Part shown: piece after piece, positions 8,853 through 62,616 of the stretch | Layout of the letters: the number at the start of each line of letters is the position of its first letter | Position numbering within the stretch: position 1 is the stretch's first letter | Virus record (IMG/VR): IMGVR_UViG_3300009008_000002 | Source of the DNA: a virus | Taxonomy: Duplodnaviria; Heunggongvirae; Uroviricota; Caudoviricetes | Length of the DNA: 64,000 nt | Reading direction: 5' to 3' (one strand) | The notes under the pieces: model-generated | Database searches by the model: none | Seen by the model: the letters and a program-made list of their open reading frames with translations, nothing else | Told to the model about the DNA's origin: nothing | Made by a program: the position numbers and the translations under genes

Positions 8853-8872
8853 GGTTCAAAACCTCCAATTTT

Positions 8873-18174: not shown

Positions 18175-19482
18175 TTAGGCCGCAACTTTATCAAAAAGTG
18201 AAGCCGTGCCTTGCACAACTTCCTTCGTAATAAGGTATTCTTGGCCACGAGGTTGTTCGGACAGATTGTATTTAATCTCCAACATGAACCCTTCGACTAC
18301 ACTTCGCAATCCTCTTGCACCAGTTCCTTTTTCCTTAGCCAATTTTGCGATTTCTTCAAGGGCATCCGGCGTGAATTCAAGTTTGGCCTTATCAAAATCG
18401 AAAAAGACTTGCTGTTGTCGAACAAGAGCATTTTTGGGTTCAGTTAAAATCCTGATAAGATCATCTACAGCCAACTCATTCAAACTGCAAATGACTGGCA
18501 GACGACCAACTAATTCAGGAATTAAACCATAACCGTGTAAATCATCAGGCGTGACGCATGAGAATAATTCATCCTTGTTTCTTTCAGCGTCAGTTACACC
18601 ATCCTGGCCAAAGCCCATCTTTCGCTTTCCAAGACGCCTTGAAACGATCTCGTCCAATCCAACGAATGTGCCACCGCATATAAAAAGGATATTACTGGTG
18701 TCAAGTTGGATGTATTGCTGTTCGGGATGCTTTCTTCCGCCTCCCGGTGGAACATTGGCAATCGTTCCTTCCAGCATTTTTAATAGAGACTGTTGCACGC
18801 CTTCGCCAGATACATCACGAGTGATCGAGACATTCTGCGACGTTTTTCCAATCTTGTCGATTTCGTCAATATATATGATGCCGGTTTCGGCTGTCGGAAC
18901 GTCAAAATCGGCTTCTCGCAAGAGCCGAAGCAACAGGTTTTCTACGTCTTCACCAACATAACCCGCTTCGGTAAGAGTAGTGGCGTCACCTATTGCGAAG
19001 GGAACATCCAACATTTCGGCCAAAGTTCTGGCTAGAAGCGTTTTTCCGCAACCAGTTGGCCCCAAGAGCATTACGTTGGATTTTTCTAACTCGACCTCAT
19101 CGAGGTTTTTTGAGCCTTGTGCGTGCATTAGCCGTTTGTAATGGTCAATGACTGCCACGGCTAACGTTTTCTTTGCTGCCCCTTGACCGATTATATACTG
19201 ATCAAGGTGTTCTACAACTTGTCTTGGCGACGGCAGGTGGTTGATTTCACTCACATTGATTTCTTCAACCTGATCTGTATTCCAACCCTCTTGTTCTCGC
19301 AGTGATACGCACTTATCTACACAGCTTGAACACGCAAAAACCTGTTCATCACCTTCTTTTATGACTCGATTTCTGGAACCTGGACCCCTGAATAGGGGGC
19401 CGGTATCGCTATTTGGACGGCCACAAAAGTCACAATAGCGACGTTTCGTACGTGGCGCGCCTCTTTTTTTCTGTTTAGCCAT
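18175..19482 (-). CDS. clpX: ATP-dependent Clp protease ATP-binding subunit ClpX
   Basis: N-terminal C4 zinc-binding domain (CDFCG...CSSCVDKC), Walker [24 protein letters not shown] Walker B, MGFG (IGF-loop-like) ClpP-docking tripeptide, sensor-2 region; overall ClpX architecture. Confidence 0.9.
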
Positions 19483-26661: not shown

Positions 26662-28104
26662 CTAATCTTCACTTCTTGACCCATCACCGCACATTCGCAC
26701 GATTTTAGGATCGAATTGCGCCACGATTTCCACAAGGTCAGCCTGTTCCATCATAACATTGTGGATATTTTTATAAACCCCCGGCACTTCGTCTGCGCCA
26801 GCAGAAAGCACCCTAACCCCTTTACGGGCAAGGTCTTCTCGCACTGCCTTCCAATTGTATTTATCTTTCGCTTTTTTTCGGGACATAACCCGACCTGCGC
26901 CATGTGACGCAGAATACAGACTATCGGGATTACCCATACCACGAACGATAAACGCTGGCGTAGCCATAGAACCTGGGATTACACCCAACACACCTGGGCC
27001 AGCAGGAGTAGCACCTTTTCGGTGGACAATTACCTCTCCAACATCCAGAGAGTGCATTTCTTTCCACGCAAAGTTATGGTGATTCTCCACGTCCCAGAGG
27101 ACTTCGGCACCAGTTAATTTCGCAAGCTGCTTATGGATCACGTCATGGTTCGCAGCCGCAAATCTACCCATCAACTCCATCGCCAGCCAGTATTCCTGGC
27201 CTTCCTCAGAATCTAAGGACAACCAAGCCAGACGCCCCAAATCTTCTTTATATCGAGGGTCCAACTTCATTTGCGCAATGGCGCTGTATTGCTGGCAGAC
27301 AGTGCTTCCTGGCCCTCTTGAGCCAGAATGCGACATAACCGCTACATACTGCCCGGCAGGTAAAGTGAGGCTCTTTGGCACATGCGGATCACTAGCGGCA
27401 TGTGAATGATCATCAGGAATAGTAACAAGTCCAAATTCCACAAAATGATTCCCACTACCACTTGTCCCAAGCTGGAGGACCGCTTTATCTTTTTGGTCTT
27501 TCGTGACGCTGGTGACAGACCAATCATCATCAAGAACAGGATGATTTCGAGGCTGATCATATACAGCGCTACCTTTATTACCGATTCCAAAGCGAGTTCC
27601 TTTCTCCAAGGCTTCCTTGAACAAATTAAACTTGGAGTCCAGGTGGGTCACTGGCAAATCCAAGACCGACAATTTCATTCGACAGGCAATGTCAACACCT
27701 ACCGCGTAAGGACACACGGCATTTTTAAGAGCCAACACCCCGCCAATTGGCAGTCCGTAACCCAAGTGCGCATCCGGCATTAGCGCAGCACCAACCGCAT
27801 CTGGCAGACTACATGCCTGCTTCATTTGACCGTGGCAAGACTCTTCAATTTGGTCGCCTCCCCACGTTTTATAATCAATCGGCTCTGGGCGCACGAAATC
27901 ATTGTTCTCGATCACTGCCTTAGCGAAATCGCCCCAGTGTTCATGGTCAGCGTATTCACCCGGAAGTGCCAAAACGTTTTTTATCGTATTTTTCAGAACA
28001 TTGGTGCGCACATGTCCTTTGATACATGCAGACTGAATGCCCTGGATGCACGCTTTCAAGCAAATTTCCGGCACGCCTAGTTTTCGTAAAGCCTTGTTAT
28101 TCAC
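26662..28104 (-). CDS. rtcB: RNA-splicing ligase RtcB (3'-phosphate/5'-hydroxyl RNA ligase)
   Basis: MPDAHLGYGLPIGGV, GSGNHFVEF, HSGSRG, HNFA motifs of the RtcB family; 480 aa. Confidence 0.9.
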   Translation of the reverse strand: MNNKALRKLGVPEICLKACIQGIQSACIKGHVRTNVLKNTIKNVLALPGEYADHEHWGDFAKAVIENNDFVRPEPIDYKTWGGDQIEESCHGQMKQACSLPDAVGAALMPDAHLGYGLPIGGVLALKNAVCPYAVGVDIACRMKLSVLDLPVTHLDSKFNLFKEALEKGTRFGIGNKGSAVYDQPRNHPVLDDDWSVTSVTKDQKDKAVLQLGTSGSGNHFVEFGLVTIPDDHSHAASDPHVPKSLTLPAGQYVAVMSHSGSRGPGSTVCQQYSAIAQMKLDPRYKEDLGRLAWLSLDSEEGQEYWLAMELMGRFAAANHDVIHKQLAKLTGAEVLWDVENHHNFAWKEMHSLDVGEVIVHRKGATPAGPGVLGVIPGSMATPAFIVRGMGNPDSLYSASHGAGRVMSRKKAKDKYNWKAVREDLARKGVRVLSAGADEVPGVYKNIHNVMMEQADLVEIVAQFDPKIVRMCGDGSRSED

Positions 28105-28108
28105 GATC

Positions 28109-28624
28109 TTACCTTTGAATTAAACTGGATGGTTTCGTTTTCACTTTCTCAACGAAACTCTCCAATTTTTGTCGGTCATACTCCAAAGCATCTACTGCTT
28201 GTTGAGGGGTCATAGCCTTCCAAGCTCGGTAGCTGCCATAATTGGTTTTGAGAGAGGAGTTACACTCCATCCAACCACTATCTGTAAACTGGGTCTGCCA
28301 AAACCGGGCAATAAGAGTATCCATATCCGTTGCAGCCCGCTTATAGTGGCCTCCACTATACCCCAAACAGACTGCTGCGTATCGACCAATGACATTGGGA
28401 ACGGATGGCCAGTAGACAAACTCATCGTCTTCTTTAGCAAAGGCTAAGAAGAGATAAGAGTGTTTCTGGTATTTCCTATGGCCAAAGACCAAATATGGAA
28501 AAGGCAAAAAATAAATATTGCTATGGTGCGAAATACACCTCTTCTGAGGGGGATATTTCCTTACCTCATACCCTCTCCCCTTCGCCAACACTTTGTACTG
28601 GGTCGCCATACCCGAAATCCTCAA
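28109..28624 (-). CDS. hypothetical protein (171 aa) sandwiched between rtcB and the kinase-SLOG gene
   Basis: ORF; operon position only. Confidence 0.4.
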   Translation of the reverse strand: MRISGMATQYKVLAKGRGYEVRKYPPQKRCISHHSNIYFLPFPYLVFGHRKYQKHSYLFLAFAKEDDEFVYWPSVPNVIGRYAAVCLGYSGGHYKRAATDMDTLIARFWQTQFTDSGWMECNSSLKTNYGSYRAWKAMTPQQAVDALEYDRQKLESFVEKVKTKPSSLIQR

Positions 28625-32679: not shown

Positions 32680-33313
32680 GAGATTTATCTGGACGGCGAC
32701 CCGACCTTACGCTGTTGTATGGCGGATCACAACCACATTCATATTTCAGAAAATAATTTTTAGGAGATTTTGCTCTAAACTTAACATGTTTAAATACTTC
32801 AAAATCCACTTCCTGCATCATTCTTTCATACCAATCCTCTCTCAGATCCATAATCTGTTCATCAGGGAAAACTACGCAACCATTTTTACACGGACAATCC
32901 AAACCTCCAAAATCATCACACTGCGAGTGATCAGAAAAATCGCCTACATCACTACTGGAAAGGTAGCCAAACTTATCGTCGCGGGCCACGTAAAGACCAC
33001 ACAATAGAGCCTGTTTGGCATAGTTTTTGTTGTGATATTGATAGTTCGATGAATCTTTTATCGAGTGTATATGGTTGTTGATGTGACAGGCTTGGTGAAT
33101 GACCTCATCTAAAATTATTCGAGGCGGCACATGAGGCATTAAAGTCCCCAACACCAACTCAAAAGGACCGGAAAAAAATCGCATAGCAAAACGATTTCTC
33201 CCCTTGACCTTTATCGCTGGGACCGGCAAGGTATCCTCAAAAAATGTCTTTGAACAATCTTTAAGTATCCTTAAAATCTCTCTCTTCGCTAGTCGATTCG
33301 GCATAAGTCTCAC
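32555..33313 (-). CDS. hypothetical Cys-rich protein with C-terminal zinc ribbon (SprT-like?)
   Basis: C-terminal CGC…CEDCG ribbon; HQACH is not a canonical HExxH, so the protease assignment is weak. Confidence 0.3.
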   Translation of the reverse strand: MRLMPNRLAKREILRILKDCSKTFFEDTLPVPAIKVKGRNRFAMRFFSGPFELVLGTLMPHVPPRIILDEVIHQACHINNHIHSIKDSSNYQYHNKNYAKQALLCGLYVARDDKFGYLSSSDVGDFSDHSQCDDFGGLDCPCKNGCVVFPDEQIMDLREDWYERMMQEVDFEVFKHVKFRAKSPKNYFLKYECGCDPPYNSVRSGRRPDKSHALRVRCEDCGQLFRCVEPGYTNGENGHAESHGGGAGRTVK

Positions 33314-33947
33314 CTTCTTCTTCTAAGCGAACTTCTCGAAATAACTCGCCAATTCCTTCTGCATCCCCCAAATCGACAAATCTAGTTGCCGCCTCTTTTA
33401 ATTTGTAGGAACACTTTTGATCGAAGAAAGCGACCTCAACCGCCAAACCTTTTTCATCTTGTAAACGGGTAACTAAGCGGGCATATTCTTCGTCGCCCGC
33501 CACCAAAACCAAAGTATCAAATGCGGCGTCACGACTTAACGCACACATATCGTAAACAATCTCCAAATTAATATTAGCGGAAAAACCCTGGTGCTGGGGC
33601 AATCTTACCGTGGTGTAGCCAGCACGCTCCAGCACATAATAAAATGAGCGGCGCTTTTTGGCCGCTCTGAGCAACGCTGGATCTGCGTCATCCCTTACCA
33701 CAGGCTCCGAGTAATAAAATTTGGCAGCAGCCATCGTCCTGTTGTCTGCAAGGTATTCCTTCAATTTAATATAGTCGATCCGGCGACTACTCAGAACTTC
33801 CTGCATTTCCTGCACAGCGCCAAACAAGCTGCTGTTGTCCACAAATAACGCTACTTTCTCTTTCTGCCTTATTTCCTCCTGTAAATCATCTAACCTCTCG
33901 ACTAAAAATTGGAGACCACCATCTTCAGGCCATAAATTGGAATCCAT
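33261..33947 (-). CDS. NYN-domain (LabA-like, PIN-fold) ribonuclease; start trimmed to internal Met
   Basis: VALFVDNSSL…, DYIKL…, LVLVAGDEEYARLV…GLAVEV pattern of NYN domains. The listed N-terminal 43 aa look like antisense read-through. Confidence 0.6.
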   Translation of the reverse strand: MDSNLWPEDGGLQFLVERLDDLQEEIRQKEKVALFVDNSSLFGAVQEMQEVLSSRRIDYIKLKEYLADNRTMAAAKFYYSEPVVRDDADPALLRAAKKRRSFYYVLERAGYTTVRLPQHQGFSANINLEIVYDMCALSRDAAFDTLVLVAGDEEYARLVTRLQDEKGLAVEVAFFDQKCSYKLKEAATRFVDLGDAEGIGELFREVRLEEEGETYAESTSEERDFKDT

Positions 33948-34045
33948 TTCGGTTCCCCAAAGTGAAGTGAAAAAGAGACATTTCTTCGCATACTGAGGCA
34001 TGATCGTTGAAAGTATGCACCAAAACCAAACTGGAGTCAAGAGCA

Positions 34046-34732
34046 ATGTCTGGAAAAAAAGAACACGTAGAAACAAAAGTATTCCAGCACGGGAAAAAGA
34101 TTCTCCTGAATATCCACCACGCCGATGACAAAATGCGCGGACATCGAGTTTCCGTCTACATAGCCCGTGATCAGAATGAATTGTTTGGTGATTGGTTGTG
34201 CGACGTTCAGACCTACGATGCCGAAGCCGACGATGGAGAATGGTTCCTCACGTTCCGGGGTAGTAGAGAACTTCCCGAAGAGATCAAATACAAGCGATGG
34301 CCCAGCTACAGAGCTGCCATAGACTTCTACCTACCCTTCAGTATAGCCGTTCGCAACGAAACCGAACGACACCCTCTCCCTGAAGATGTTACCCAAATTC
34401 TGGAAAGTTGGTCAAGATCGCTGTCTGACGAACGGAAAGAACTGGATAGTCGGTATCATGCCCTGATGCGCCGACGATGGGAATTAAAACACCTAGCTGA
34501 CAAATACAATTTGACCAGCCTTGGGTATCAGAATGAAGACACTGACAAGGCTCAAGCACTTCGTCGTCTGCTAGATTTTGAACACTGGATGGAGAAAGAA
34601 GAAAAGACTATTCCGTTCTTTTCTGAAGCTGTTCTCTACGAATTGGTGGGCAAGGAAGACGCCCGCACCATTCTAGCTCTATTGAGGGGTGTAGCAGAAC
34701 ACATTGATCCAGAAATCGCTAAGGAGATTTAA
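34046..34732 (+). CDS. hypothetical protein (~228 aa), divergent from the NYN gene
   Basis: Plus-strand ORF not contradicted by minus-strand genes; start set at the second Met. Confidence 0.4.
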   Translation: MSGKKEHVETKVFQHGKKILLNIHHADDKMRGHRVSVYIARDQNELFGDWLCDVQTYDAEADDGEWFLTFRGSRELPEEIKYKRWPSYRAAIDFYLPFSIAVRNETERHPLPEDVTQILESWSRSLSDERKELDSRYHALMRRRWELKHLADKYNLTSLGYQNEDTDKAQALRRLLDFEHWMEKEEKTIPFFSEAVLYELVGKEDARTILALLRGVAEHIDPEIAKEI

Positions 34733-34782
34733 TTAATGTTCCAAGCGGCAAAATTGACCAAACTCTCAGTCTGTCATTGTTT

Positions 34783-35061
34783 TTAGTCTTGTTGAGGGAC
34801 AATAGTGGTTTTCATGCGTTCACGCCTCTGTTGTCTCTGATCCTTCCACCTATAAACCGCATCCAGTCGTTCTAACTGCTTATGAACCTTTTCCATTGCA
34901 AACTCAATATCACCGAAAATCATGTAGTGCAAGGAATTAGGACGACGAAGAACATTCTCTAGCGCCTCTGCCGCTCGGACAAAATCGGTCCACGCCTTCT
35001 TATCTTGGGGGTCTACCCCCTCAGCGATCATGTCTTCTTTGTATTCATCGTAAGATTTCAT
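34783..35061 (-). CDS. hypothetical protein (92 aa)
   Basis: ORF. Confidence 0.35.
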   Translation of the reverse strand: MKSYDEYKEDMIAEGVDPQDKKAWTDFVRAAEALENVLRRPNSLHYMIFGDIEFAMEKVHKQLERLDAVYRWKDQRQQRRERMKTTIVPQQD

Positions 35062-35134
35062 GTTTTTCGTTTTCTCCTATCTGTGAATTTATTTATGCCT
35101 TGACACTATTATAATTGTAATCTATAATTTTCAT

Positions 35135-35446
35135 ATGCATATTAAAACCCTCACAGATATAATCGATCTTTGCCTCGAAGAAGTCATGCTCGTAGGAAAT
35201 TTCTCGTTCATGGCAGTAAACGGAGGCGTGATGGTCTGCTATAGCTGTCCTGTGGATAACGCAAGCAGACTGGAAATCCAAGCACTATTAAAAGATGAAG
35301 GTGAATTCTCCAACGGAGAAGTGGAAGTTTGGGCTTGTGAAGCCAATGGCATTCAAACCTACTCCAAAGTAGACATCATCGAATTAATCGACGTGCTTCA
35401 AAAGAAAAAAGACATATTAATACAAAAACCCGCCCCAAGTAATTGA
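35135..35446 (+). CDS. hypothetical protein (103 aa)
   Basis: ORF. Confidence 0.3.
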   Translation: MHIKTLTDIIDLCLEEVMLVGNFSFMAVNGGVMVCYSCPVDNASRLEIQALLKDEGEFSNGEVEVWACEANGIQTYSKVDIIELIDVLQKKKDILIQKPAPSN

Positions 35447-35702
35447 GACGGGCTTTGTCTGTACCTTTGTCACCCGGATGATACATGTATTCTATGTATT
35501 TTTATGTCCACAACGCTTGACGGCAAACAGTTACAGCGGCAACATAAGCGCCACTTGTTGCGCTACAAAGCAAATTGAGCTTTGGGCACCTTACATAAAA
35601 GTATTGCCATGTAGTGTTGGTATACACACCGTTTGACTTCCTACAATTATAAGCTGGCATAAAAAATCCCTCCTTAAAAAGGCTCATGCTAATCTCTTAT
35701 AT

Positions 35703-36530
35703 TTAGGTAGGTTGGGCGTATTTTTGAATATCTTTTAGGTAGAGAATTTTATTTCCCTTCGTTATCTGCTCTGTAGTGTCTGGCCTCTTCCGGCGCATAT
35801 ACTTCATAGTGCAATCACCTTCGTGATATATAAAGCTCTTTACAGAGATGGCTTGACTGAATCCGTAAGCTCGCATTCGCTTGGCAAATTCCGCATTTTC
35901 GTAACCAGCAAAGGGATAATGCTTTATGTGTCCTATCCTATTAAATAACTCACGATGACACATTGCACAATACAAAGGTAAATACTCATCCTCTTCATCA
36001 AGGACAATATCCGCAAAATCTGTTTCTTCATCTGGAATCAGGGATGCAGAAGACTTCATCTTAAAATTATCAACTGTAGGGTTATTAGTCAAAGGTGCTA
36101 CCATCTTAATGCCTTGATCCTTCAGTTTCATCATAGATTGACCCAAATTAAGGAGCCAGCGAGGCTCTTTAATCAGACAATCTGAGTGCATTATCACCAC
36201 CCATTTGAAAATCGGCTGATTCTTACGCCTCACCTTATCTAGCGCCTCAATTCCCTTCTGAATACACGCTCCAAAACCAATTTGCTCATCATTTCTGACC
36301 TCTAGCAAATTCGGTATTTGCCCAAAACCGTATTGAATGAAATCCTGATTAGGTGAAGCATCATCAACCAAACAAATTCTAAAATGAGGCGTCATGGTGT
36401 GATGAATTAAACTTGTTACTAACGATGCTACCTTTTCATATTGACCATAAAAAGGAATGACCACATCCACATATTGATCTGAAAAAAGAGGGTGATCATC
36501 TACAAAATTAAAAACTTTCGATTTTCCCAT
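35703..36530 (-). CDS. family-2-like glycosyltransferase
   Basis: VVIPFYGQYEKV…ICLVDDASPN (GT-A fold DxD region). Confidence 0.5.
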   Translation of the reverse strand: MGKSKVFNFVDDHPLFSDQYVDVVIPFYGQYEKVASLVTSLIHHTMTPHFRICLVDDASPNQDFIQYGFGQIPNLLEVRNDEQIGFGACIQKGIEALDKVRRKNQPIFKWVVIMHSDCLIKEPRWLLNLGQSMMKLKDQGIKMVAPLTNNPTVDNFKMKSSASLIPDEETDFADIVLDEEDEYLPLYCAMCHRELFNRIGHIKHYPFAGYENAEFAKRMRAYGFSQAISVKSFIYHEGDCTMKYMRRKRPDTTEQITKGNKILYLKDIQKYAQPT

Positions 36531-37046
36531 TTAAATACCTAAAATTAAATCAGAGGGTGAATCACAATGATATACTGTAGCCTGTTCAGCAAAAGTTGCC
36601 ATAGTGTCATAAGCATCTCCAATGCCATAAAACACGAATTTAGTAGGAACATCTAATCTCTCCTTGAATCTCATGCCCTTCACAACGCCATATTTATTGT
36701 CGGACTCGTACCTATCCGTCACTACCATGATTACCCTGTCATAATCATACGAATCTTCTCCAGCCAAAACAAAGTAAGTTTGCTTAATAGCCTGCCCCAA
36801 GTGAAACTCTGAGAACTTTAACCGCATCATTTGTGCGATAGTTTGGCTTTTGTATCGAGGAACATCTAATTCGTCTTCCCGAAAAACATACACCCTGTCA
36901 TCATGGTGAAGACCCGCTATAAAATGAGAAAACTTTGTTTTGAGTTCATTTAAAAAAGGCGGTCTATTTATATCAAAAATCACACCTATTAAGCTATTTT
37001 GCATTTTTTCTCCTGTGTTTCTGGTGATTGTAAATCTTGCACACAT
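36531..37046 (-). CDS. hypothetical protein (171 aa)
   Basis: ORF; 5' end overlapped by the homing endonuclease gene. Confidence 0.35.
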   Translation of the reverse strand: MCARFTITRNTGEKMQNSLIGVIFDINRPPFLNELKTKFSHFIAGLHHDDRVYVFREDELDVPRYKSQTIAQMMRLKFSEFHLGQAIKQTYFVLAGEDSYDYDRVIMVVTDRYESDNKYGVVKGMRFKERLDVPTKFVFYGIGDAYDTMATFAEQATVYHCDSPSDLILGI

Positions 37047-37950
37047 ACTGAAAAGATGTCCCTAACTCAATTGCTATTTCTTTATAGGTCCAACCTTTTT
37101 CTCTTAAATCAAAAACACTATTAAGTTTCTCTTGGCTGAATTGCCTTGCAAAAGCAGATTTAGAAATATCAATTTTGTAATCCATACACTCACACGGTAT
37201 TTTTTGATCTCTAATTAAATCCATAAAATCAAAGTATGATTTGGCAGGAACATTAATCTCAACTTTATCTTTTTTAACCAACCTTAGTTTCGTTTTAATC
37301 CCCACACCCAATTCTATTAAATCTACAAGTCTTTCACACTCCTCATCAGAAAAACCATCAGTAGAGAAAAATGCTTGCCTGTGCGGGCTAAAATTCCTAC
37401 CATCATCAAAAAACCACACAGCAAGTACAAAGGGAGTAATGTTTAACTTAGAAGGCAAACACTTAACCCTTCTGCCACCTTTCAAAATGTAATCACCATC
37501 ATTGTTTCGTAAATACCACTCTTTTTCCATTTCATAAAAAACAGAATGATAAAGCGTATAGCATTGCCACGACTCTTTCCTTTGTCCTATTTTACCATTA
37601 GGAAAAACAACCTCAGTTGGTGGTCTTGGAATTAATTTGCGAGAAAATGGCTTCAATAAATCATTTTTCCAACTCAAATAATCCTTTTGCACAACCGAAT
37701 GCCATTCTGCAAAATTTGATTTTACTTTTCTTGGTTTAGACAAACTGCCATCGCCCAAAAGCGATCCAATTAAAAGGTTATGCTGCTTTTGAGTAAACAC
37801 ATTTGGAAGATCCACCCTGCGTTTAAAAAGCCCATGCCGTTTTGCAATGCGGTCAACAGTAGACCTTGAAACACCAAAATAATCAGCCGTTTCATTGTTT
37901 GTGTGTTCAAGCCAAATATTTTTAAATTCTTCAACATCAACATCTATCAT
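36994..37950 (-). CDS. LAGLIDADG homing endonuclease (two-motif, single-chain) with flanking HTH-like segments
   Basis: LLIGSLLGDGSL and VLAVWFFDDGR LAGLIDADG motifs ~100 aa apart; free-standing (not obviously intronic/inteinic). Confidence 0.8.
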   Translation of the reverse strand: MIDVDVEEFKNIWLEHTNNETADYFGVSRSTVDRIAKRHGLFKRRVDLPNVFTQKQHNLLIGSLLGDGSLSKPRKVKSNFAEWHSVVQKDYLSWKNDLLKPFSRKLIPRPPTEVVFPNGKIGQRKESWQCYTLYHSVFYEMEKEWYLRNNDGDYILKGGRRVKCLPSKLNITPFVLAVWFFDDGRNFSPHRQAFFSTDGFSDEECERLVDLIELGVGIKTKLRLVKKDKVEINVPAKSYFDFMDLIRDQKIPCECMDYKIDISKSAFARQFSQEKLNSVFDLREKGWTYKEIAIELGTSFQYVCKIYNHQKHRRKNAK

Positions 37951-38744
37951 AGCGAACTTCCTCTTAGTTTTCTATGATATATACGAATAGGATTTAAAAA
38001 ATCTTTAATCGGGTGTAAAATACTTGCTTTTTTGTAATTTACATCTATATCAGGTCTAAATCTTATTGGAAACTGTTCGTGATAGCCGTGCCACTTCTGA
38101 TCCGCTTCTGTAAACTTAGCAAGCTCATTAACAACGCCGCCGTAATGAGCCGCTAAAGTGGGAAACAGGTGCTCACCGAAATCGTAACCACCCTGCTCTT
38201 CGTAGCCAGGGAAAAACCCCTTTGAAAAATCGTTAGTATAAAAAAGGAACTTATCAAAGAAATCAATCTCAAATAATTTCTTGACAAAATCTCGATGATG
38301 GAACACACAAGCACCAAGTAGATAGTGACTAAATAAAAAATTCGTCTCGAATATACTTTCCAACAATGGGAACTGTATATTCCCAGTTCTGTAGTCATTC
38401 CCCAAACACCATATCTTTTCCTTTTCTGCTGCTTGTAAATATGGCCCAAATCCTGACGATGCTACCAAGCAATCGTATTCCATATAACAATACCAATCAG
38501 CATCAGGGAATATGGTCCCAGCGTGTTTTAAAGCTAGAACAATGTTTCTATATGGGGCACGGTTGCAAGCATGATATAGCCCCTCTAGCTTATGAACTGG
38601 CAATTTCACCTTTTCTAGTTTATGCCAACCGGCACCATCACAAATAACCAACACATCATGGGTCATCCACCGTCTTATGGATTCTAATGTATCGAAGACA
38701 ATTGGCGAGTCATCATGCACATTTAAAATGGCTGCTATTTTCAT
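37947..38744 (-). CDS. hypothetical protein (265 aa), possibly glycosyltransferase-like
   Basis: ORF in glycan island. Confidence 0.35.
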   Translation of the reverse strand: MKIAAILNVHDDSPIVFDTLESIRRWMTHDVLVICDGAGWHKLEKVKLPVHKLEGLYHACNRAPYRNIVLALKHAGTIFPDADWYCYMEYDCLVASSGFGPYLQAAEKEKIWCLGNDYRTGNIQFPLLESIFETNFLFSHYLLGACVFHHRDFVKKLFEIDFFDKFLFYTNDFSKGFFPGYEEQGGYDFGEHLFPTLAAHYGGVVNELAKFTEADQKWHGYHEQFPIRFRPDIDVNYKKASILHPIKDFLNPIRIYHRKLRGSSL

Positions 38745-38807
38745 ACAAAAAAAATTCCTGCTAACTAACTTATTTTAAGTGAGTAACAATATTCAGGAGT
38801 CGAATAA

Positions 38808-39722
38808 ATGAATCCAGAAGAAAAAACAAAGTTGAAAGAATTGTATAGGGTGTTAGTTGATGAAAACGACCCCCAAAAGCTACCCTATCTGCATGTATTG
38901 GGCGACCTTGTAGGTCAGAACACTGATTTCATTGCACTGAAAAGCCTGTTAGCAGGCGATAACTGGCCGCGAGCGGTTGATCCCAACTTGATTTGCGACC
39001 AAGAATCAGAAACAGATAAAATTAGTCGTGCAGAAGGTATTTTAGAACTATTAGTCGAGAAAGACTTAAAAGACAAGAAATTTCTCGATTTCGGATGTGG
39101 GGAAGGTCATGTGCCATATAAGTCACTGGTGCAAGAGCCTACTGTCACGGTTGGTTACGATATTAAAACCAACGACCATTGGACTGAGTTCGGGAGCAAT
39201 GAAAAACTTGTATTCACCGACAAATTAGAAGAAGCAAAAGAACACGCTCCTTATGACGTGATTCTTGTATACGACGTTATCGATCACGTCACAGCAGAGG
39301 AAAGCGTTGCCATTTTAAAACAAGTCCATGAATTGCTTGATGAAAACGGCACGGTTTATTTAAGAGCACACCCCTTCTGCTCACGACACGCCACACACTT
39401 ATATCACAACATCAACAAATCGTTTATCCATTTGGTGTTTTCCGCAGATGAATTGCAACAATTGGGATATGAAGCCCCACCGAATGCTAAAGTTGTTTAT
39501 CCAATCACTCAATACGGCCAGATGTTTGAGCAAGCTGGCTTTACAGTAAGCCACCACAACATTTTAAGAGAGAAGGTCGAACCCTTCTTTTTGAAGAACC
39601 CAGTTGTAAAAGAAAGGGTTAGATTGAATTACGCAAACAGCCCTGATAAACACATTAAAAAAGGTGGTTTCCCTGAATTCCAACTTGAACAACAATTCAT
39701 TGATTATGTCCTAAAGAGATAA
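38808..39722 (+). CDS. class I SAM-dependent methyltransferase
   Basis: KFLDFGCGEGH motif I, VILVYDVIDHV (post-II), NGTVYL motif III. Confidence 0.6.
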   Translation: MNPEEKTKLKELYRVLVDENDPQKLPYLHVLGDLVGQNTDFIALKSLLAGDNWPRAVDPNLICDQESETDKISRAEGILELLVEKDLKDKKFLDFGCGEGHVPYKSLVQEPTVTVGYDIKTNDHWTEFGSNEKLVFTDKLEEAKEHAPYDVILVYDVIDHVTAEESVAILKQVHELLDENGTVYLRAHPFCSRHATHLYHNINKSFIHLVFSADELQQLGYEAPPNAKVVYPITQYGQMFEQAGFTVSHHNILREKVEPFFLKNPVVKERVRLNYANSPDKHIKKGGFPEFQLEQQFIDYVLKR

Positions 39723-39723
39723 T

Positions 39724-40785
39724 ATGTCAAAATCAACAATATACGATCTCCAGATCGTGATGCCAGTAACCTTTGAGGGCAAATATGGTCAAAGGTTGCT
39801 GGATTTTAAAAAGACCGGACTCCTGAATATTAAGGATAAGAAAGTGCTGGTTACTCTGCTCATTGGGCCAGAACGCGCTCCATTTTGGAAAGGCGACTGG
39901 CCCGATGGAGTAGATGTTGAAGCCATTGAGAGTCCACACAAGCAGGAAACCCCAAAAACTTATAGCTATTTCGGCACACTCAAAGCTGAAGATATAAGAG
40001 CAAGATGGATAGCCAAAATTGATGATGACACAATTAATGATGTGTCAAATTGGGTTGATAAACTAGATGAAGAATATGATCATACTAGAGAATATTATAT
40101 CGTCACTGAATTCAGACCAGAACAACATGCCCACGAAGACAACATCTTAAGAGAAATGGGATTTAATCGTTGGTTTACAACCAAGAAATGCGTCATCTGG
40201 CATGAATTAGAAGGATGCGTGGTATCTGAAGCGGCTCTTAGCAGAATAGTAAGCAATGAAACTGCGACCAAATTCATGCAAAAAAGAGCAACCATTCCAG
40301 AGGGCTACAATGACTATGCTCTAGCGTGCGCTGCTCGCATATGTAAGATTTACCCCAGCGATGCATATTTTATGTCAAAACTTCCACAGATTGGGGATCT
40401 CATGTTGTTCGGTGGACACCTTTGCCATATACATGAAATCTCACATGATAGAAACTTCCACTGCTTTGATTTAATACAAAGAATGATGAATGAAGATATA
40501 GGCAGTGAAACAGACATCCATAATGAGGTTGTAGGAAAAGAGTTTGTGTACACAAATGGACATGCGATGCTAATTGTTAAATTAGAACCAAATGGTGTAA
40601 TAAGCGGCCAACGTTCAGATGCTAGAATTTGGCATGTCAAACCAAACGGCTTTTTGGAATTTCTGAGAAGTGATGGCTCGCTGGTTGAAGTGTTTGATAA
40701 TTATGAAAACACAAATTTTATGGAAGGGTATCACGACAAAAACTCACGCCTACCAGGAAAACCTCAACTCAGAAAACTAGCATGA
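39724..40785 (+). CDS. hypothetical protein (353 aa)
   Basis: ORF directly coupled to the upstream MTase. Confidence 0.4.
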   Translation: MSKSTIYDLQIVMPVTFEGKYGQRLLDFKKTGLLNIKDKKVLVTLLIGPERAPFWKGDWPDGVDVEAIESPHKQETPKTYSYFGTLKAEDIRARWIAKIDDDTINDVSNWVDKLDEEYDHTREYYIVTEFRPEQHAHEDNILREMGFNRWFTTKKCVIWHELEGCVVSEAALSRIVSNETATKFMQKRATIPEGYNDYALACAARICKIYPSDAYFMSKLPQIGDLMLFGGHLCHIHEISHDRNFHCFDLIQRMMNEDIGSETDIHNEVVGKEFVYTNGHAMLIVKLEPNGVISGQRSDARIWHVKPNGFLEFLRSDGSLVEVFDNYENTNFMEGYHDKNSRLPGKPQLRKLA

Positions 40786-40801
40786 TTTTATTATATACAG
40801 T

Positions 40802-41464
40802 ATGAAACTGGTTGCATTCTATAATAAATCATATGAGCCATTAAAAAAACGATTTCTCAAGTCCCTCCTTGATGACTTTGAGCTAGATATAGATTTCATT
40901 CCAATAAAAGCAAACGAAAACACGCCAGGAGGAGGTCGTTCAATATGGAAAGCCAGAACAAAATGGACAGCAGACAAAATCCAAAAATACAAAAATGAAA
41001 TAGTATTATTCTGTGATTTGGATATTCAATTTTTCCAGCCAATCAAAGACAATATCCTAGCCTTATTGAATGACAATGATATACTATTTCAAAGAGCCAA
41101 ACCCAATAGAAAACCAATTAATATTGGAGTTATGGTAGTCAAATGCAACAAAAAAACTGAAACTTTGTGGAGGTTAGCGAGCAATATTTCACACTATTAT
41201 AAAATTCAAGACGAAGATATAATAAACACCCTATTAAGCTCTCAAGTAACCAATCCACTTCAAATAAAATATGATTTCCTACCATTAACCTATGCTATCA
41301 CTAATTACATAAATAATTCTACTATTGTTGACTTGATGTTACACCATGAAACATCTACTAGATTTATAGAAAGCAAACTAGAAGTTATGTCCAAAATAAA
41401 AAAAAGATGGGAGAAGGGAATGAGAGAAAAGGAGAGGAAAGTCTCCCGACCGTGCTATTTATAA
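40802..41464 (+). CDS. hypothetical protein, possible nucleotide-sugar transferase-like
   Basis: ORF; FCDLDIQFF resembles GT-A DxD context (weak). Confidence 0.35.
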   Translation: MKLVAFYNKSYEPLKKRFLKSLLDDFELDIDFIPIKANENTPGGGRSIWKARTKWTADKIQKYKNEIVLFCDLDIQFFQPIKDNILALLNDNDILFQRAKPNRKPINIGVMVVKCNKKTETLWRLASNISHYYKIQDEDIINTLLSSQVTNPLQIKYDFLPLTYAITNYINNSTIVDLMLHHETSTRFIESKLEVMSKIKKRWEKGMREKERKVSRPCYL

Positions 41465-42255
41465 ACATTAGCATTTGATACACGATGCACTTTTGGGCGA
41501 GCACTCTTTGGGTTTTCATGTGTAGAATAATCAGAATAATCGAAATCCCCTAAATAATCTGCCTCAATATTGAAATATTCTAAAAAAACCAATTGATTAG
41601 TTATAATTGCTTCCAGATCAAAAGATGAACCCACTCTGCCACTTTGCTTGCTAATCCTCTCATCGTGACAATGGTGCTTATAATATTGAGGACAACAGCC
41701 TATCATCGTAGCTTTTTGAATACCACAAAACCACATAAAATGAATCAATGTAGTAATGCTGCCTGTATGTGCAAAAAGTGATTTTTGCTTGATGATTTCA
41801 TTTTTATCTAAACACCAATTTGGAAACTTTTTTATATCCATAGATTTATTTTTGTACCAATCATCTGGAGTAGAACCAAAAGTGGGAACATAATATAATC
41901 GTTTGACTTCTGGTTTTATGTCTTTTATGGATTTTAACCAAACTGTTTCTGACCATGCTCTCTCAAAATCTAAAAATTTATCAGGATTTCTAAAATAAAC
42001 AAGTGGACAAAGATACAAGGATTTAGAAACTAAACCACAAGCTGGATAGGGAGGGTGATGGGTTACAAGAAAGGATTCATTAACATATTTCTCAAATCTT
42101 ACTGCATCATTTACTAAAAATACAGGACAAGAAAAATCGGATAAATCCCTATAATCAAAAAGTGTAGGGCCAGATGCTACAACTACTGCATTTTTTCCTT
42201 TGAAACAGTCTTTATACTGACTCAACACAGCTACATTAGAGTAATGTTGCAACAT
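41455..42255 (-). CDS. hypothetical protein (266 aa)
   Basis: ORF. Confidence 0.35.
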   Translation of the reverse strand: MLQHYSNVAVLSQYKDCFKGKNAVVVASGPTLFDYRDLSDFSCPVFLVNDAVRFEKYVNESFLVTHHPPYPACGLVSKSLYLCPLVYFRNPDKFLDFERAWSETVWLKSIKDIKPEVKRLYYVPTFGSTPDDWYKNKSMDIKKFPNWCLDKNEIIKQKSLFAHTGSITTLIHFMWFCGIQKATMIGCCPQYYKHHCHDERISKQSGRVGSSFDLEAIITNQLVFLEYFNIEADYLGDFDYSDYSTHENPKSARPKVHRVSNANVYK

Positions 42256-54162: not shown

Positions 54163-54722
54163 ACTTCAAACTCTGGTTAGAAAGCCAATATAAATTCAAT
54201 ATGAAACGCCTCCCGCTAATCCTACAAGGATTAGCGGCTGAAGCCGTCAAAGCAGGCTCGTTTACTGAATTTAAAAAGGATTTCACGCTTCAAATCAAGC
54301 ATGGCCTCTACTGGCACTGGACCGATGATATTTATTTTAAAATTGATTCTGAGCGGGGTCCAAGGGATATGTCCAGTTTGGCAGCAGGTGGAATGGATGA
54401 GGGGAAATTGATGATTACCTCAGACATTGATGCCTGGGCAAATTACGGCACTAGACCGTATGCTGCACTGATTGATATGACAGAAGTTCCCAGAAATGGC
54501 TATCGACAAGTCAATCGAGGATTTGGGAATGAATTTTTTGTAAGCGATCCTAGTAAAGCCAAAGTCCTTGAAGTTTTACCACGAAAACAAGCCTTTGCAA
54601 AAGACCGGCAACAACGCTCGCTTCTATCAAAAGCCATCAACAGCAATGAAGATTTAGAAGCATTTTATGACGCTGTTAATGGGTTTCACCAAGAGAGACA
54701 ATTAGACAGCCCTCTTAATTAA
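54159..54722 (+). CDS. hypothetical protein (187 aa)
   Basis: ORF (GTG start). Confidence 0.4.
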   Translation: MNFKLWLESQYKFNMKRLPLILQGLAAEAVKAGSFTEFKKDFTLQIKHGLYWHWTDDIYFKIDSERGPRDMSSLAAGGMDEGKLMITSDIDAWANYGTRPYAALIDMTEVPRNGYRQVNRGFGNEFFVSDPSKAKVLEVLPRKQAFAKDRQQRSLLSKAINSNEDLEAFYDAVNGFHQERQLDSPLN

Positions 54723-57418
54723 TCATCTTCCGAATCATCAATCTTAATGTATTCATCTTTGGCTCGTGTGTCTCTCACATAACCAATGCGTCTTTCGGTT
54801 AGATGATCCGCCTCTAATTTGGTTCTGGGGTGTGGATATAAACTAGGAGTAATCTCAATCAATCGCTCAAACTCCAGACCTTTTGATTTGTGTGCAGTAG
54901 TCAAAATCACTGGGTTTTCTTCTTCCATTTTCTTCTTATGTGCCCGCTCTTGTGCTGGACTCATATCCTCAGGAACGCCACCCAATCTACGATATAACCA
55001 ATTCTTAAATTCCTTGACTGTTATTTCCACTCTACTGGCGTATGTCTGGTCTCCATCCTCGCCCTTCTTCTCATCCATTAGAACTTCTGCGGAGGCTACT
55101 AGGGCTTTCTGTGCCTCTAGTAAATCTTTGAGTTGACCTTGTTTACGAACCTTTCCGCCCCAATCTTCCTTTTTAGCTTCACAGAAGTCATTTAATTCAT
55201 CTAAGAAGTCTTCTATGTCGCTATCATCATCAACTCTCTTGTAACCACCCCATGCTATGACCCTATTAATAGTGGCCAACACATCCCTGGCTAAGTCTTT
55301 GCCATAAATCACAAATGGAATCTTGTGTTTCAGCAATTCCATTGCTGCCTTGGCCAACGGTTCATTGGTCCTAGCAATAATGGCAGTTTCTTTCTTCATC
55401 TCGCCCATGACTCGCATTTCGGTCCCTAGACGATCCATTACGTCATCATATTTAAACTCACTATCAGAAATGTAGGCGGGATCATCTGGGTCATCTGCCA
55501 CTCCCGCTTGTAAATTACTTACCACACCTTGTCGATTGGAATAATCTATGATACCGGGTTTTGAACGGAAGTTTCTAGTAAGGGTTTGTTCAGCAGCACC
55601 AGGGGTAGCAGATGCGCTCGTCAACATAGTGGTAATATCTCTGAAAGAATTATCATCTGCGCCTCTAAACCTATACATGCCTTGATTGGGGTCGCCAACA
55701 GCAACTATTCTCGCTCCAGCTTCTACCAATTTTTGCAGCAGAACTTTTTGTGCAATATTAAAGTCTTGGACTTCATCTACAAGCACGAATCTGTATTTTT
55801 GTGGCTTAGTCCAATCTAATTCAGCAGCGTGTCTAGCAGCATACCAAAGATCGTCATCAAAATCCCTCAGTCCCTTCAAGTTATGCTCAACAGGCGTATG
55901 TCTACCCTGTGCATCCGTTATTCTTCTCCACTCTTTCCTACCGCCACCAACATCTTGCTCTTCATGGGTCTGCATCCACTTTTGATCAATACCATGAGGC
56001 TTAGACACTTTCAGAACCCACGCAGCCGCTTTTATCATTCTCGGCAAAAACGCTCCAGTTTCGCAATCACGAAGAAAATCATCTACCCCCATAGCATGGG
56101 AAATTTCTTCATTTTTAAAATCAGCTTTAGGATCTTCTTCTAACTGCTCTTTTACCCTCTCCAGTTCCCAATTAATATCATAATTTGGTTCATCTAATTC
56201 CCCAAGCAACTCTGCAATGTCTTTTTCAGGATTATCAGGATCTAAATTGTAAGCCTTCGCCAAACCAATGATTTTCTCAACTTCCCTATTAAACTCTCTC
56301 CAAATTTTCTTCATGTAAGATTTGGTGTATTTGCCGCATCGAGGGGAATCAAAATGCACAACATTCACACTTTCCAACATGTTTTTATATTGTCCACCGT
56401 CTAAAATCTCTGCTGCTTTAGTGCCTTTCTCTGAATACTTGGCAAACCTTTGCGTCGAGGGAACAGGCCCCTCATTCTCCCCAGTTGAACGATTCTTTTT
56501 GCCATTAGCATCTAAAACTTCACCAGCATAACTGTGAGTAGTGTATACATCTACCCATTTGGGGAAAGACTTCTTCGCTTGCTTCCTGTTTTCCCTACCA
56601 AATACTAAATACAACCACTCATTTTTGCCTCTGGCTTTCTTGCCGAATTTCTCAGCAAGATATTTTAACATAAATGTCTTGCCCGTTCCTGCTAATGCGT
56701 TAATAACCAAATGATCAACTGAGTCGTTGGTGGCAATGTCTCCAAATCTGGCTTCAATAGCCCTCTGCTCGTCCGTTAGTTCCTCTTTTTTATCTTTTTG
56801 CGTCCAAGTAGCCTTAGCTAAATCACTAGCTTTGGCACCTTTGACCATTTTCCCATTCTCTTCCACCCTTTGAAATCTACCTGCTAATTCAGCTTGGGGC
56901 ATGTGAGCATTAAACCACTGCAACTTGCCCTTCCAAATGGTAGCGTATGCCCAAGTGCCATCCCCATTATTTTTAAGAGCTACGTGTTGACCCTGCCTGA
57001 TTTTATGATCAACACCCGTGTGATCGGGGAGAACTTCATCTTGTTTGGCAGTAGCCAAAAACCACGGCTTAACCTGTGCTTGTTGGCCTCTGGAAGAATG
57101 GGAGCCTCTTTGTGTTCGTTGCGTCTGTGCTTGCTGTGTCTGTGCGGCTGTCTGCCCCTGTCTGCTAATTGGACTATCAGGAACCTCTAAAGCAGAAATA
57201 GTCTCAGAACCACCAGGGCCTTTCCTCCAATAAATCCACTCTTTATCGCCAAAAGTGGACTGCATGTAGCGATAACCTTGGCCCACTAAGGTTTGGTGCG
57301 TAGCACCAGGAGGCGCTGGAATCTTTGCCATTTCAAACAACGCCTTCTCTTGAAGGTTAAACCAATCTTTAAAATCAACGTCTGCTTGGTATGGTGGTAG
57401 AAATTCTATGTCAAACAC
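54719..57418 (-). CDS. UvrD/PcrA/Rep-like superfamily 1 DNA helicase with long N-terminal extension
   Basis: Motif I INALAGTGKTF, motif II LVDEVQDFN, motif III GDPNQ, motif IV TRNFRSKP, motif VI TTAHKSKGLEFERLI. Confidence 0.8.
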   Translation of the reverse strand: MFDIEFLPPYQADVDFKDWFNLQEKALFEMAKIPAPPGATHQTLVGQGYRYMQSTFGDKEWIYWRKGPGGSETISALEVPDSPISRQGQTAAQTQQAQTQRTQRGSHSSRGQQAQVKPWFLATAKQDEVLPDHTGVDHKIRQGQHVALKNNGDGTWAYATIWKGKLQWFNAHMPQAELAGRFQRVEENGKMVKGAKASDLAKATWTQKDKKEELTDEQRAIEARFGDIATNDSVDHLVINALAGTGKTFMLKYLAEKFGKKARGKNEWLYLVFGRENRKQAKKSFPKWVDVYTTHSYAGEVLDANGKKNRSTGENEGPVPSTQRFAKYSEKGTKAAEILDGGQYKNMLESVNVVHFDSPRCGKYTKSYMKKIWREFNREVEKIIGLAKAYNLDPDNPEKDIAELLGELDEPNYDINWELERVKEQLEEDPKADFKNEEISHAMGVDDFLRDCETGAFLPRMIKAAAWVLKVSKPHGIDQKWMQTHEEQDVGGGRKEWRRITDAQGRHTPVEHNLKGLRDFDDDLWYAARHAAELDWTKPQKYRFVLVDEVQDFNIAQKVLLQKLVEAGARIVAVGDPNQGMYRFRGADDNSFRDITTMLTSASATPGAAEQTLTRNFRSKPGIIDYSNRQGVVSNLQAGVADDPDDPAYISDSEFKYDDVMDRLGTEMRVMGEMKKETAIIARTNEPLAKAAMELLKHKIPFVIYGKDLARDVLATINRVIAWGGYKRVDDDSDIEDFLDELNDFCEAKKEDWGGKVRKQGQLKDLLEAQKALVASAEVLMDEKKGEDGDQTYASRVEITVKEFKNWLYRRLGGVPEDMSPAQERAHKKKMEEENPVILTTAHKSKGLEFERLIEITPSLYPHPRTKLEADHLTERRIGYVRDTRAKDEYIKIDDSEDD

Positions 57419-61962: not shown

Positions 61963-62616
61963 ATGAAGAAAAAATGTTCAAAATGCCAGGAAAACAAAGA
62001 CTCGGAAGCCTTCACAAAAAGATCATCATCCAAAGATGGATTACACCCGTGGTGTAGAAGTTGTGTCCAAGATTACAATAAAAACCATCACAAGAGAAAC
62101 AAAAAATCTGCTAATGTAAGAAATAAAAAATGGCGAGAAAACAATGTAGAATACAACAAAGAAAGAAATAGAAAATGGATGGTAGAAAATGCAGAATACC
62201 GTCAAGAGTATAAAAAACGGCACAGAAAAGAAAATAGAGAAAAAATAAATTCATACAAAAGACAAAGAAGACTAGAGTTGTCCCAAGACCCACTATTCCG
62301 ACTTGAGACCAACCTTAGAAAAAGACTTTATAGAGCTATTAAAAAAATAGAGGGAAACGCTCTTGAAAACAAAAGCATCTCCCTCGAAAGCAGCAATTTA
62401 CTTGGTTGTTCTATTCAGGATTTACAAAAACACCTTGAAAAGCAATTCACCAAAGAAATGAGTTGGAACAATTATGGACAATGGCACGTAGACCATATTC
62501 GTCCAGTTTCCAGTTTTGATCTAACTGACAAATCTCAAGTTCAAGAATGTTTTCATTATGCAAATTTACAACCTTTATGGGCCAAAGATAACTACAAGAA
62601 GGGTTCATCATATTAA
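61963..62616 (+). CDS. HNH endonuclease with N-terminal Cys4 zinc finger and basic repeat region
   Basis: C-terminal GQWHVDHIRPVS…NLQPLWAKDN (HNH: H-N-H with DH and N..N). N-terminal CSKC…CRSC. Repeated NKKWRENNVEYNKERNRKW-like basic units. Confidence 0.75.
   Translation: MKKKCSKCQENKDSEAFTKRSSSKDGLHPWCRSCVQDYNKNHHKRNKKSANVRNKKWRENNVEYNKERNRKWMVENAEYRQEYKKRHRKENREKINSYKRQRRLELSQDPLFRLETNLRKRLYRAIKKIEGNALENKSISLESSNLLGCSIQDLQKHLEKQFTKEMSWNNYGQWHVDHIRPVSSFDLTDKSQVQECFHYANLQPLWAKDNYKKGSSY

Follow-up and report, generated by a model that had tools for sequence, protein, structure and literature searches.

An I-SceI-like LAGLIDADG homing endonuclease gene, free-standing at a polymorphic site in a glycan island of a huge marine phage

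Most characterized LAGLIDADG homing endonucleases are intron-encoded. This also applies to I-SceI and I-WcaI, two core-only enzymes (~235 aa) whose genes reside in mitochondrial group I introns. I-SceI-like enzymes recognize a long target of 18–22 bp and generate 4-nt 3′ overhangs. For T-even phages, intronless homing with co-conversion has been described, and hairpins which block initiation at endonuclease open reading frames (ORFs) are documented for I-TevI, I-TevII, I-TevIII, segB, and mobE (PMC2988022). This review on T4 does not mention LAGLIDADG enzymes at all. Here, we report on a LAGLIDADG homing endonuclease gene, termed HE, which is encoded on the minus strand of a 64,000 nt stretch of phage DNA (IMG/VR record IMGVR_UViG_3300009008_000002). 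This stretch is referred to as the window, and coordinates without a locus prefix apply to it (Table 1). We consider it very likely that HE is a functional, free-standing homing endonuclease gene from the I-SceI branch of the LAGLIDADG family, that it is carried by a huge marine phage, that it is polymorphic among related phages, and that it homes.

HE is embedded in an operon of co-oriented genes. Its upstream neighbor (UP) codes for a protein with a GT-A fold, its downstream neighbor (DN) for a 157 aa protein, and DN is followed by a gene for a GT2 glycosyltransferase (GT2). The start codon of HE shares the sequence ATGA with the stop codon of UP. The ORF proposed in the initial annotation, which was made from the sequence alone, is genuine, and its 318 aa frame is present. 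The overlap of ~50 nt which had been claimed between HE and the ORF 36531..37046 had to be corrected, because this longest ORF had been taken as the downstream gene. Ortholog alignment and sequence place the DN start at the ATG 37004..37002, with AGGAG (37014..37010) six bases before it. Gene callers also assigned 157 aa to DN on three of four contigs. The real overlap between HE and DN is 11 nt (ATGCAAAATAG).

The HE protein matches the Pfam family LAGLIDADG_2 (PF03161) over residues 59–236 with 74.6 bits (cut-off 25; E = 1.2e-20), and among PHROGs it matches phrog_11023 “homing endonuclease with LAGLIDADG motif” (E = 4e-20). The two motifs are spaced by ~115 residues, as in monomeric double-motif enzymes. 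Residues L65, G66, D67, W179, D182, D183, and G184 are unchanged in all 31 homologs, down to 25% sequence identity, while G68 is nearly invariant in this set and unchanged in the 13 closest homologs. When a profile of 13 homologs was compared to the PDB, the matches were I-WcaI (6x1j, E = 1e-22) and I-SceI (1r7m and others, E ~ 1e-19). LGD and DDG of HE align with the catalytic motifs of these two enzymes, motif 2 being opposite to WFMDDG from I-SceI. The partner of D67 in the LGD motif of I-SceI is Asp44 (established numbering).

The AlphaFold2 model of HE, which was built from 31 sequences, has a mean predicted local distance difference test score (pLDDT) of 91.6. The core is modeled as two alpha-beta-beta-alpha-beta-beta-alpha halves, and a three-helix bundle is found at both ends of the protein. 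Foldseek ranks I-SceI at the top, with a template modeling (TM) score on target of 0.73–0.74 and a root-mean-square deviation (rmsd) of 2.8 Å over 216 columns. I-WcaI comes second (TM score on target of 0.70), with WhiA and the bI3 maturase far behind (E = 4e-12 for I-SceI vs. 2e-6 for WhiA, entries 8dy9_I and 3hyi). The predicted structure thus shows the fold which is expected of I-SceI-like enzymes, being pseudo-dimeric with a beta-sheet DNA saddle. Both terminal bundles correspond to helix-turn-helix (HTH) domains. The N-terminal one has profile matches at residues 15–42 (Sigma70_r4, E = 2.7e-5; HTH_17, E = 3e-3) and the C-terminal one at residues 272–309 (HTH_23, E = 9e-10; HTH_7, E = 8e-6; Sigma70_r4_2, E = 4e-5).

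The initial description as a single-chain enzyme with two LAGLIDADG motifs and HTH-like flanks is thus borne out by the PF03161 match, by the invariance of both catalytic acidic positions, and by Pfam matches as well as confident three-helix bundles at both ends. Absence of the catalytic acidic residues, or fragmentary homologs, had been named as findings which would speak against this assignment, but the residues are invariant and the HE ORFs of the relatives are all intact. For the two closest sequenced HE alleles (P0004 and P0005), the rates of nonsynonymous (dN) and synonymous (dS) substitution are 0.10 and 0.98. The resulting dN/dS of about 0.1 indicates that HE is under purifying selection. 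The enzyme is probably active. No further copies of HE were found in the 64 kb window.

The arrangement UP, HE, DN, and GT2, all on one strand, is also found around the five closest homologs of HE (39–65% sequence identity), and the same site is occupied in six lineages (P0001–P0006). In order to sample loci irrespective of HE, UP was used as query, which resulted in 25 further loci. The cassette UP-DN-GT2 is present at 16 of them, and a single one (L027) carries HE. In the HE-less cassettes (L012–L015, L017, L021–L025, L028–L031, and L035), UP directly overlaps DN. At L012, for example, UP extends from 8001 to 8792 and DN from 8789 to 9343, so that the stop codon of UP overlaps the start codon of DN. 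The site is thus polymorphic, with six HE+ lineages vs. at least 13 HE-less lineages that have the same cassette. At the level of protein clusters, at least 98 for UP compare to six for HE at the UP/DN site. HE sits at one precise site, which reaches from the last codons of UP to the start codon of DN, and this site is empty in most of the related phages.

UP from the HE+ locus L005 is 88%, 82%, and 78% identical to that from its HE-less relatives L028, L022, and L035, respectively, and only 46–61% identical to UP from other HE+ loci. The insertion site could thus be defined, as originally suggested, by comparison with genomes that lack the insertion. Between flanks of 76–80% DNA sequence identity, L005 has 1027 nt where L028 has 43 nt. 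On the right side, the DN start codon is the exact point at which homology restarts, while on the left side it fades ~65 nt before the HE ATG. His-Arg codons (CAYAGR) are repeated at both junctions in L001, L005, L009, and L011, and we place the boundaries of the putative inserted cassette at these codons (Table 1). The last codons of HE from the window (HRRKNAK) match the end of UP in alleles without HE (L015 has HREKRKNAK there), and they include the DN start. Likewise, the UP tail and HE start of the window (...AGTTCGCTATGATAGATG) resemble the UP tail and DN start of the HE-less locus L012 (...AGTGTTTTATGATAGATG). These resemblances point to an insertion within the UP/DN overlap, by which a coupled junction was re-created on both sides. 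The uncultured phage LR756511.1 had also been considered as a true empty site but was rejected, since UP is present but is followed by another gene. At the HE-less locus L035 (L035:5390-6151), the GT2 gene of the cassette is on the opposite strand, which represents a local inversion beside the HE insertion site.

The distribution of HE argues for movement. HE+ loci are scattered in a tree of UP sequences (neighbor-joining, without support values). HE from the window and from L011 form the most similar pair (65%), yet UP from the window is the outlier of the set (46–51%). The distances computed for HE and UP are thus incongruent. The comparison of L027 with L005 revealed one difference over 3,178 nt, a region that spans the methyltransferase gene and the larger part of UP, followed by 41 differences over 506 nt (8%). 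The divergent part starts 125 nt before the HE ATG and extends into HE (L027:3041-3684 vs. L005:5785-6428). The breakpoint is inside UP, the gene with the GT-A fold, and the right-hand boundary is beyond the end of L027. The breakpoint requires a recent recombination by which HE and the 3′ end of UP were replaced. Such a pattern is exactly what homing with co-conversion produces (PMC2988022). When L009 and L037 were compared for mosaicism, none was seen.

The 3′ end of UP contains a conserved 14-nt stretch (Table 1), and CGTATATATCA is identical across all five HE+ alleles. The last conserved codons of UP are CGT ATA TAT CAY in all five, followed by AGR in four of them and by AAA in L027. The first 11 nt of the stretch are identical although the UP proteins of the HE+ loci share only 46–63% sequence identity. 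HE-less cassette alleles show at least three mismatches at this position. In a 15-nt window at the stretch, the mean pairwise nucleotide identity is 0.86 among HE+ alleles vs. 0.52 among HE-less alleles. Over the last 30 nt of conserved UP, L005 has values of 0.53–0.57 to its HE-less relatives, which among each other have 0.70–0.77. The stretch may be part of the recognized site and may occur only where HE could enter. Alternatively, it may be kept for the start-codon hairpin described below.

Several observations relate to this flank. An exact-pattern scan of IMG/VR for the 14-nt motif found nothing. At L044 (L044:440-565), a UP homolog ends with ...KISSPVRIYHR, encoded by CGCATATATCATAGG, and is followed by unrelated sequence without HE, DN, or GT2. 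L044 could be an uninvaded or a rearranged allele. As it has 13 of the 14 positions without HE, a strict linkage of the motif to HE was rejected. An amino acid “immunity” signature was also tried and given up: the third codon after HPLK codes for Asp in all HE-less and for Leu or Ser in all HE+ alleles of a set of 24 loci, for which this seemed exclusive. In 98 UP clusters, Ser, Asn, Gly, and other residues also occur there, so that the signature is a weak lead only.

An mRNA hairpin is predicted which contains the HE start codon in its 3′ arm (Table 1). The Shine-Dalgarno sequence of HE (AAGAGGAAG, 37965..37957) is in the loop. RNAalifold, applied to four HE+ junctions, yielded nine pairs between UAUCAUAGR, a part of the invariant stretch, and YCUAUGAUA, which includes the HE AUG. 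The hairpin is the minimum-free-energy (MFE) structure in the window, L005, L009, and L011 (−12.1, −12.8, −16.6, and −15.2 kcal/mol, with z-scores of −2.3, −1.3, −3.3, and −4.3, respectively). The stem is extended by complementary sequences which are allele-specific: UAGGA/UCCUA in L009, UAGAGA/UCUCUA in L011, and CAGGCAA/UUGUCUG with a bulged A in L005. In three alleles, the HE start codon is paired with P of about 1.0, while control genes average 0.52. As control genes can be paired too, the case for the hairpin is its conservation across alleles and not a single fold. The simplest reading of the predicted fold is that HE synthesis would depend on termination-reinitiation by ribosomes which translate UP. 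An invariant TATATAT is located just 5′ of and within the 5′ arm, and a promoter within it is possible.

The mechanism which we envisage starts from a co-infection, during which the enzyme would cut alleles without HE at or close to the UP/DN junction, with the final ~100 nt of UP as the likeliest place. In the repair of the double-strand break, HE and a short stretch from the 3′ end of UP would then be copied from the HE+ genome, which corresponds to intronless homing with co-conversion. We infer that the HTH module at each end of the enzyme lengthens the DNA contact beyond the ~18–22 bp of the core. Expression of HE would be kept low and would be tied to the host operon, with the AUG buried in a hairpin whose 5′ arm lies within the coding sequence of UP. 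This AUG would be reached mainly by ribosomes which finish UP at the overlapping UGA (ATGA). An alternative route would be a transcript which starts inside the hairpin. As the 3′ end of HE carries the Shine-Dalgarno sequence and start codon of DN, the operon would stay translationally coupled after insertion.

Other explanations have to be weighed against a homing enzyme. The closest relatives with solved structure, I-SceI and I-WcaI, are intron-encoded according to their PDB molecule names, and HE might likewise be borne by an intron, or else by an intein. However, an Rfam scan of 35500..39500 detected no family, with no match at E ≤ 1, UP and DN are separate genes which keep their own stop and start in the empty alleles, and HE is out of frame with UP (ATGA). 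That the ORF was mis-called is contradicted by the identical 318 aa protein, which gene calling returned for five contigs (the longest having 193 kb) in four samples. We see practically no room for either possibility, and HE is thus free-standing and intron-less, as had been assumed initially. HE could also have been domesticated as a LAGLIDADG/HTH DNA-binding regulator of the glycan operon, similar to WhiA, and would then no longer be a mobile nuclease. It is co-oriented and translationally coupled inside the operon, has two HTH modules, and has WhiA among its fold matches (8dy9_I, 3hyi). Its dN/dS is 0.1, and with 53–65% sequence identity it is better conserved than UP (45–49%), DN (20–35%), and GT2 (33–46%). 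Its position is also shared by six lineages in which HE identity falls to 39%, and it was this synteny which had first suggested a fixed or domesticated gene. That idea was dropped once HE-less cassettes were found. HE is missing from 15 of the 16 cassettes retrieved with UP, including relatives with 78–88% identical UP, and the operon therefore works without HE. Both catalytic Asp motifs are invariant in HE, while WhiA lacks them (structure 3hyi). Protein relatives of HE occur at unrelated sites, and the fold match to I-SceI is far better than that to WhiA. We thus consider domestication very improbable.

HE might instead be a fixed and decaying remnant of a single ancient entry, which descended vertically with many losses and which is now inactive or being lost, without ongoing homing. 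This would agree with the divergence of HE among the HE+ loci, which is comparable to that of the host genes, and with the clean overlap of UP and DN at the empty sites. It is difficult to reconcile with the intact HE ORFs, the invariant catalytic residues, and the dN/dS of 0.1. Precise loss which restores the UP/DN overlap in at least 13 lineages is also less parsimonious than a few gains. In addition, the distances of HE and UP are incongruent, and the 3.2 kb of identity followed by 8% divergence between L005 and L027 needs a recent recombination at HE. We consider a decaying remnant unlikely, even though part of the HE scatter may still be due to loss.

Several points weigh against a functional, homing HE as the full explanation. 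HE proteins (53–65% identity) have diverged about as far as the host genes, so that some of the scatter could result from ancient presence with many losses. The signature in the flank also occurs elsewhere: tails with “RIYHR” occur in three other UP clusters, their HE status being unknown, and L044 carries 13 of the 14 nt of the motif without HE and without DN. A close HE-less relative of the window genome was not found, with UP from the window being at most 60% identical to any other. The case for the hairpin is built on four to five sequences. The hairpin is not the MFE structure in L027, so that four of the five HE+ alleles have it, and P ≥ 0.95 is attained by six of 34 control genes, so that single sequences with complete pairing at the start codon are not rare. 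A promoter in TATATAT is unsupported and was dropped as a candidate, because a sigma-70 scan did not rise above background and the regions upstream of the window genes showed no recurrent motif.

The wider family to which HE belongs is large. A profile of HE relatives, searched against 1.84 billion representatives, retrieved 554 clusters (50% identity) at E ≤ 1e-30 and 6,950 at E ≤ 1e-10. Many of these match HE over its full length, including both HTH ends. The architecture HTH-LAGLIDADG_2-HTH thus appears to be common in nature. To our knowledge, no member of this family has been biochemically characterized. In the GenBank phage collection, a tblastn search with HE yielded no member of this family at E ≤ 1e-5. 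More distant homologs of HE (31–41% identity) are found at other sites in large phage-like contigs. Members of the HE subfamily with 31–40% identity directly adjoin a Glyco_transf_9 gene at two loci (L039:5001-5615 and L041:437-1258), and another one is ~1.5 kb from such a gene (L040:5001-6017). A recurrent association of the HE subfamily with glycosyltransferase genes is possible.

Within the window, HE is surrounded by genes for GT2, the GT-A-fold protein UP, Fringe-like, Nucleotid_trans, GLF (UDP-galactopyranose mutase), NeuB, CTP_transf_3, and Methyltransf_23. These glycosyltransferase and sugar-pathway neighbors justify the term glycan island which was used for this region in the initial annotation. 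UP itself has no match in Pfam or PHROG. Its AlphaFold2 model (pLDDT 95.6) has GT-A glycosyltransferases as best Foldseek matches (chondroitin synthase, GfsA, B3GalT5, SpsA). Judged from this model, UP, with homologs in at least 98 clusters, represents an unannotated glycosyltransferase family of huge phages.

The glycan island of a relative (L006) contains a putative homing endonuclease gene with GIY-YIG, NUMOD3, and AP2 domains (L006:433-1227). A second putative homing endonuclease gene in this island codes for a 305 aa protein which has LAGLIDADG_3-type motifs (YWLGFITADGAI, LFDGDGSI) and two HTHs at its N-terminus, and which is unrelated to HE from the window (L006:2282-3199). Both fit the picture of an endonuclease-rich genome which had been proposed for the window. 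HE may even be more than a passenger. It would then be one of several unrelated homing endonuclease genes which drive the exchange of glycosyltransferase modules among huge phages and which mark and create recombination boundaries in glycan islands, with expression gated by the hairpin through translation of the very glycosyltransferase gene that is targeted. Behind this idea are the HE relatives beside GT9 and GT2 genes elsewhere, the GIY-YIG and LAGLIDADG_3 genes of L006, and the L005/L027 breakpoint in a glycosyltransferase gene. We put it forward as a tentative possibility which we consider rather less likely to be true than not.

The endonuclease-rich picture had also been based on an ORF near the end of the window (61963..62616, plus strand), which had been called an HNH enzyme. 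There is no Pfam match even at E ≤ 0.1, and no sequence match in the PDB, so that the family assignment is not backed by Pfam, while an HNH-like motif (WHVDH...NLQPLW..DN) can be recognized by eye. This motif is in the C-terminus (WHVDHIRP...NLQPLWAKDNYKKG). Residues 78–215 match phrog_1035 “endonuclease VII” (E = 2e-21). The product may belong with the F-CphI-type homing endonucleases which have an Endo VII motif (PMC6083498).

The window belongs to the genome of a huge marine phage, in agreement with the initial view of a phage or large-virus-like genome. The nearest annotated relative is LR756511.1 (595 kb), in which both UP and a ClpX-like gene (18175..19482) have their best match, these two genes being its only ties to the window, and related IMG/VR contigs have 177–459 kb. 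A megablast search with 34000..42000 against the GenBank phage collection found no match. Genes in the window are tightly packed, with ATGA overlaps and Shine-Dalgarno sequences. The ClpX-like AAA+ protein (18175..19482, minus strand; phrog_4339, E = 2e-97) is 54% identical to the protein from LR756511.1. A phage-encoded 351 aa protein (10704..11759, minus strand) has a C-terminal TIR domain (TIR_2, E = 3e-22, and also a weak match to ThsB_TIR). Two large paralogous SPFH/Band 7 proteins of 581 and 549 aa are encoded next to each other (57536..59281 and 59317..60966, both on the minus strand) and are adjoined by the gene for a UvrD-like helicase of 899 aa (54719..57418). An RtcB RNA ligase (26662..28104), a Prok-E2_D protein (28109..28624), and a NYN-domain nuclease (33261..34076) are also encoded on the minus strand.

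Table 1. Features of the HE locus in the window
Feature	Coordinates	Strand	Comment
GT2 glycosyltransferase gene, final gene of the UP-(HE)-DN-GT2 cassette	35703..36530	−	PF00535, E = 5e-8; syntenic in all cassette loci
DN, downstream host gene	36531..37004	−	157 aa, function unknown; revised ATG start; AGGAG within the 3′ end of HE
HE, free-standing LAGLIDADG homing endonuclease gene	36994..37950	−	318 aa, ATG to TAG; HTH, I-SceI-like core, HTH
Putative inserted cassette	37012..37976	−	His-Arg codons CAYAGR at both ends: CATAGA (37976..37971) and CACAGG (37017..37012)
C-terminal three-helix HTH, residues ~270–310	37021..37143	−	helices 273–284, 289–296, 300–308
Catalytic core, double-motif, residues ~54–260	37171..37791	−	PF03161 at 59–236; aligned to I-SceI 4–224
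LAGLIDADG motif 2, LAVWFFDDGR, residues 176–185	37396..37425	−	Asp182/Asp183 codons 37402..37407
LAGLIDADG motif 1, LLIGSLLGDGSL, residues 59–70	37741..37776	−	catalytic Asp67 codon 37750..37752
N-terminal three-helix HTH, residues ~6–38	37837..37935	−	helices 6–15, 18–25, 29–38; pLDDT ≥ 90
Predicted mRNA hairpin	37945..37979	−	5′ arm UAUCAUAG (37979..37972); 3′ arm CUAUGAUA (37952..37945), with the HE AUG
UP, upstream host gene	37947..38744	−	265 aa; GT-A-fold glycosyltransferase-like; no Pfam family; stop overlaps the HE start
Conserved 14-nt stretch CGTATATATCATAG in the 3′ end of UP	37972..37985	−	kept in all five HE+ alleles, apart from one later base in L027; single occurrence in the window

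The finding of HE does not overturn current understanding. It provides a natural setting for an abundant and uncharacterized branch of I-SceI relatives with the architecture HTH-core-HTH, for which occupied as well as empty alleles are now available. The homing site can thus be synthesized and tested directly, which is useful for the discovery of meganucleases. The rules known from the GIY-YIG and HNH enzymes of T4, which are intergenic insertion in an operon, co-conversion of flanks, and translation limited by a hairpin, appear to hold also for a LAGLIDADG enzyme from uncultured huge phages. The genes affected by this recombination are likely to shape glycans of the virion or of the host surface.

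Among known systems, HE is closest to I-SceI and I-WcaI. The core is homologous over ~210 residues, both motifs and the Asp residues align, and the structures superpose with a TM score of 0.73 and an rmsd of 2.8 Å. Unlike these enzymes, HE is free-standing in a phage operon, has an extra HTH at each end, and shares only 19–23% sequence identity with them. Within PHROGs, the relationship is to phrog_11023, which the core matches. With the free-standing Seg (GIY-YIG) and Mob (HNH) endonucleases of T-even phages, HE shares the intergenic co-oriented insertion, the sporadic presence, signs of co-converted flanks, and a predicted initiation hairpin. The nuclease family differs, being GIY-YIG or HNH there and LAGLIDADG here. 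The hairpin differs also, as the start codon is buried here rather than the Shine-Dalgarno sequence, and for a late promoter inside the hairpin no sequence evidence was found here. WhiA (DUF199), a bacterial transcription factor with a degenerate LAGLIDADG scaffold and a C-terminal HTH, is among the fold matches of HE, and it resembles HE in that a LAGLIDADG double domain is followed by an HTH similar to sigma-70 region 4. In contrast to WhiA, HE keeps the catalytic acidic residues, has an additional N-terminal HTH, and is sporadic and phage-borne, with a fold match which is much weaker than that to I-SceI. The WhiA-like class is marked by loss of the acidic residues and by universal, vertical presence, and neither applies to HE. 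HE is thus an ordinary addition to a known type, a free-standing enzyme of the I-SceI family with HTH extensions.

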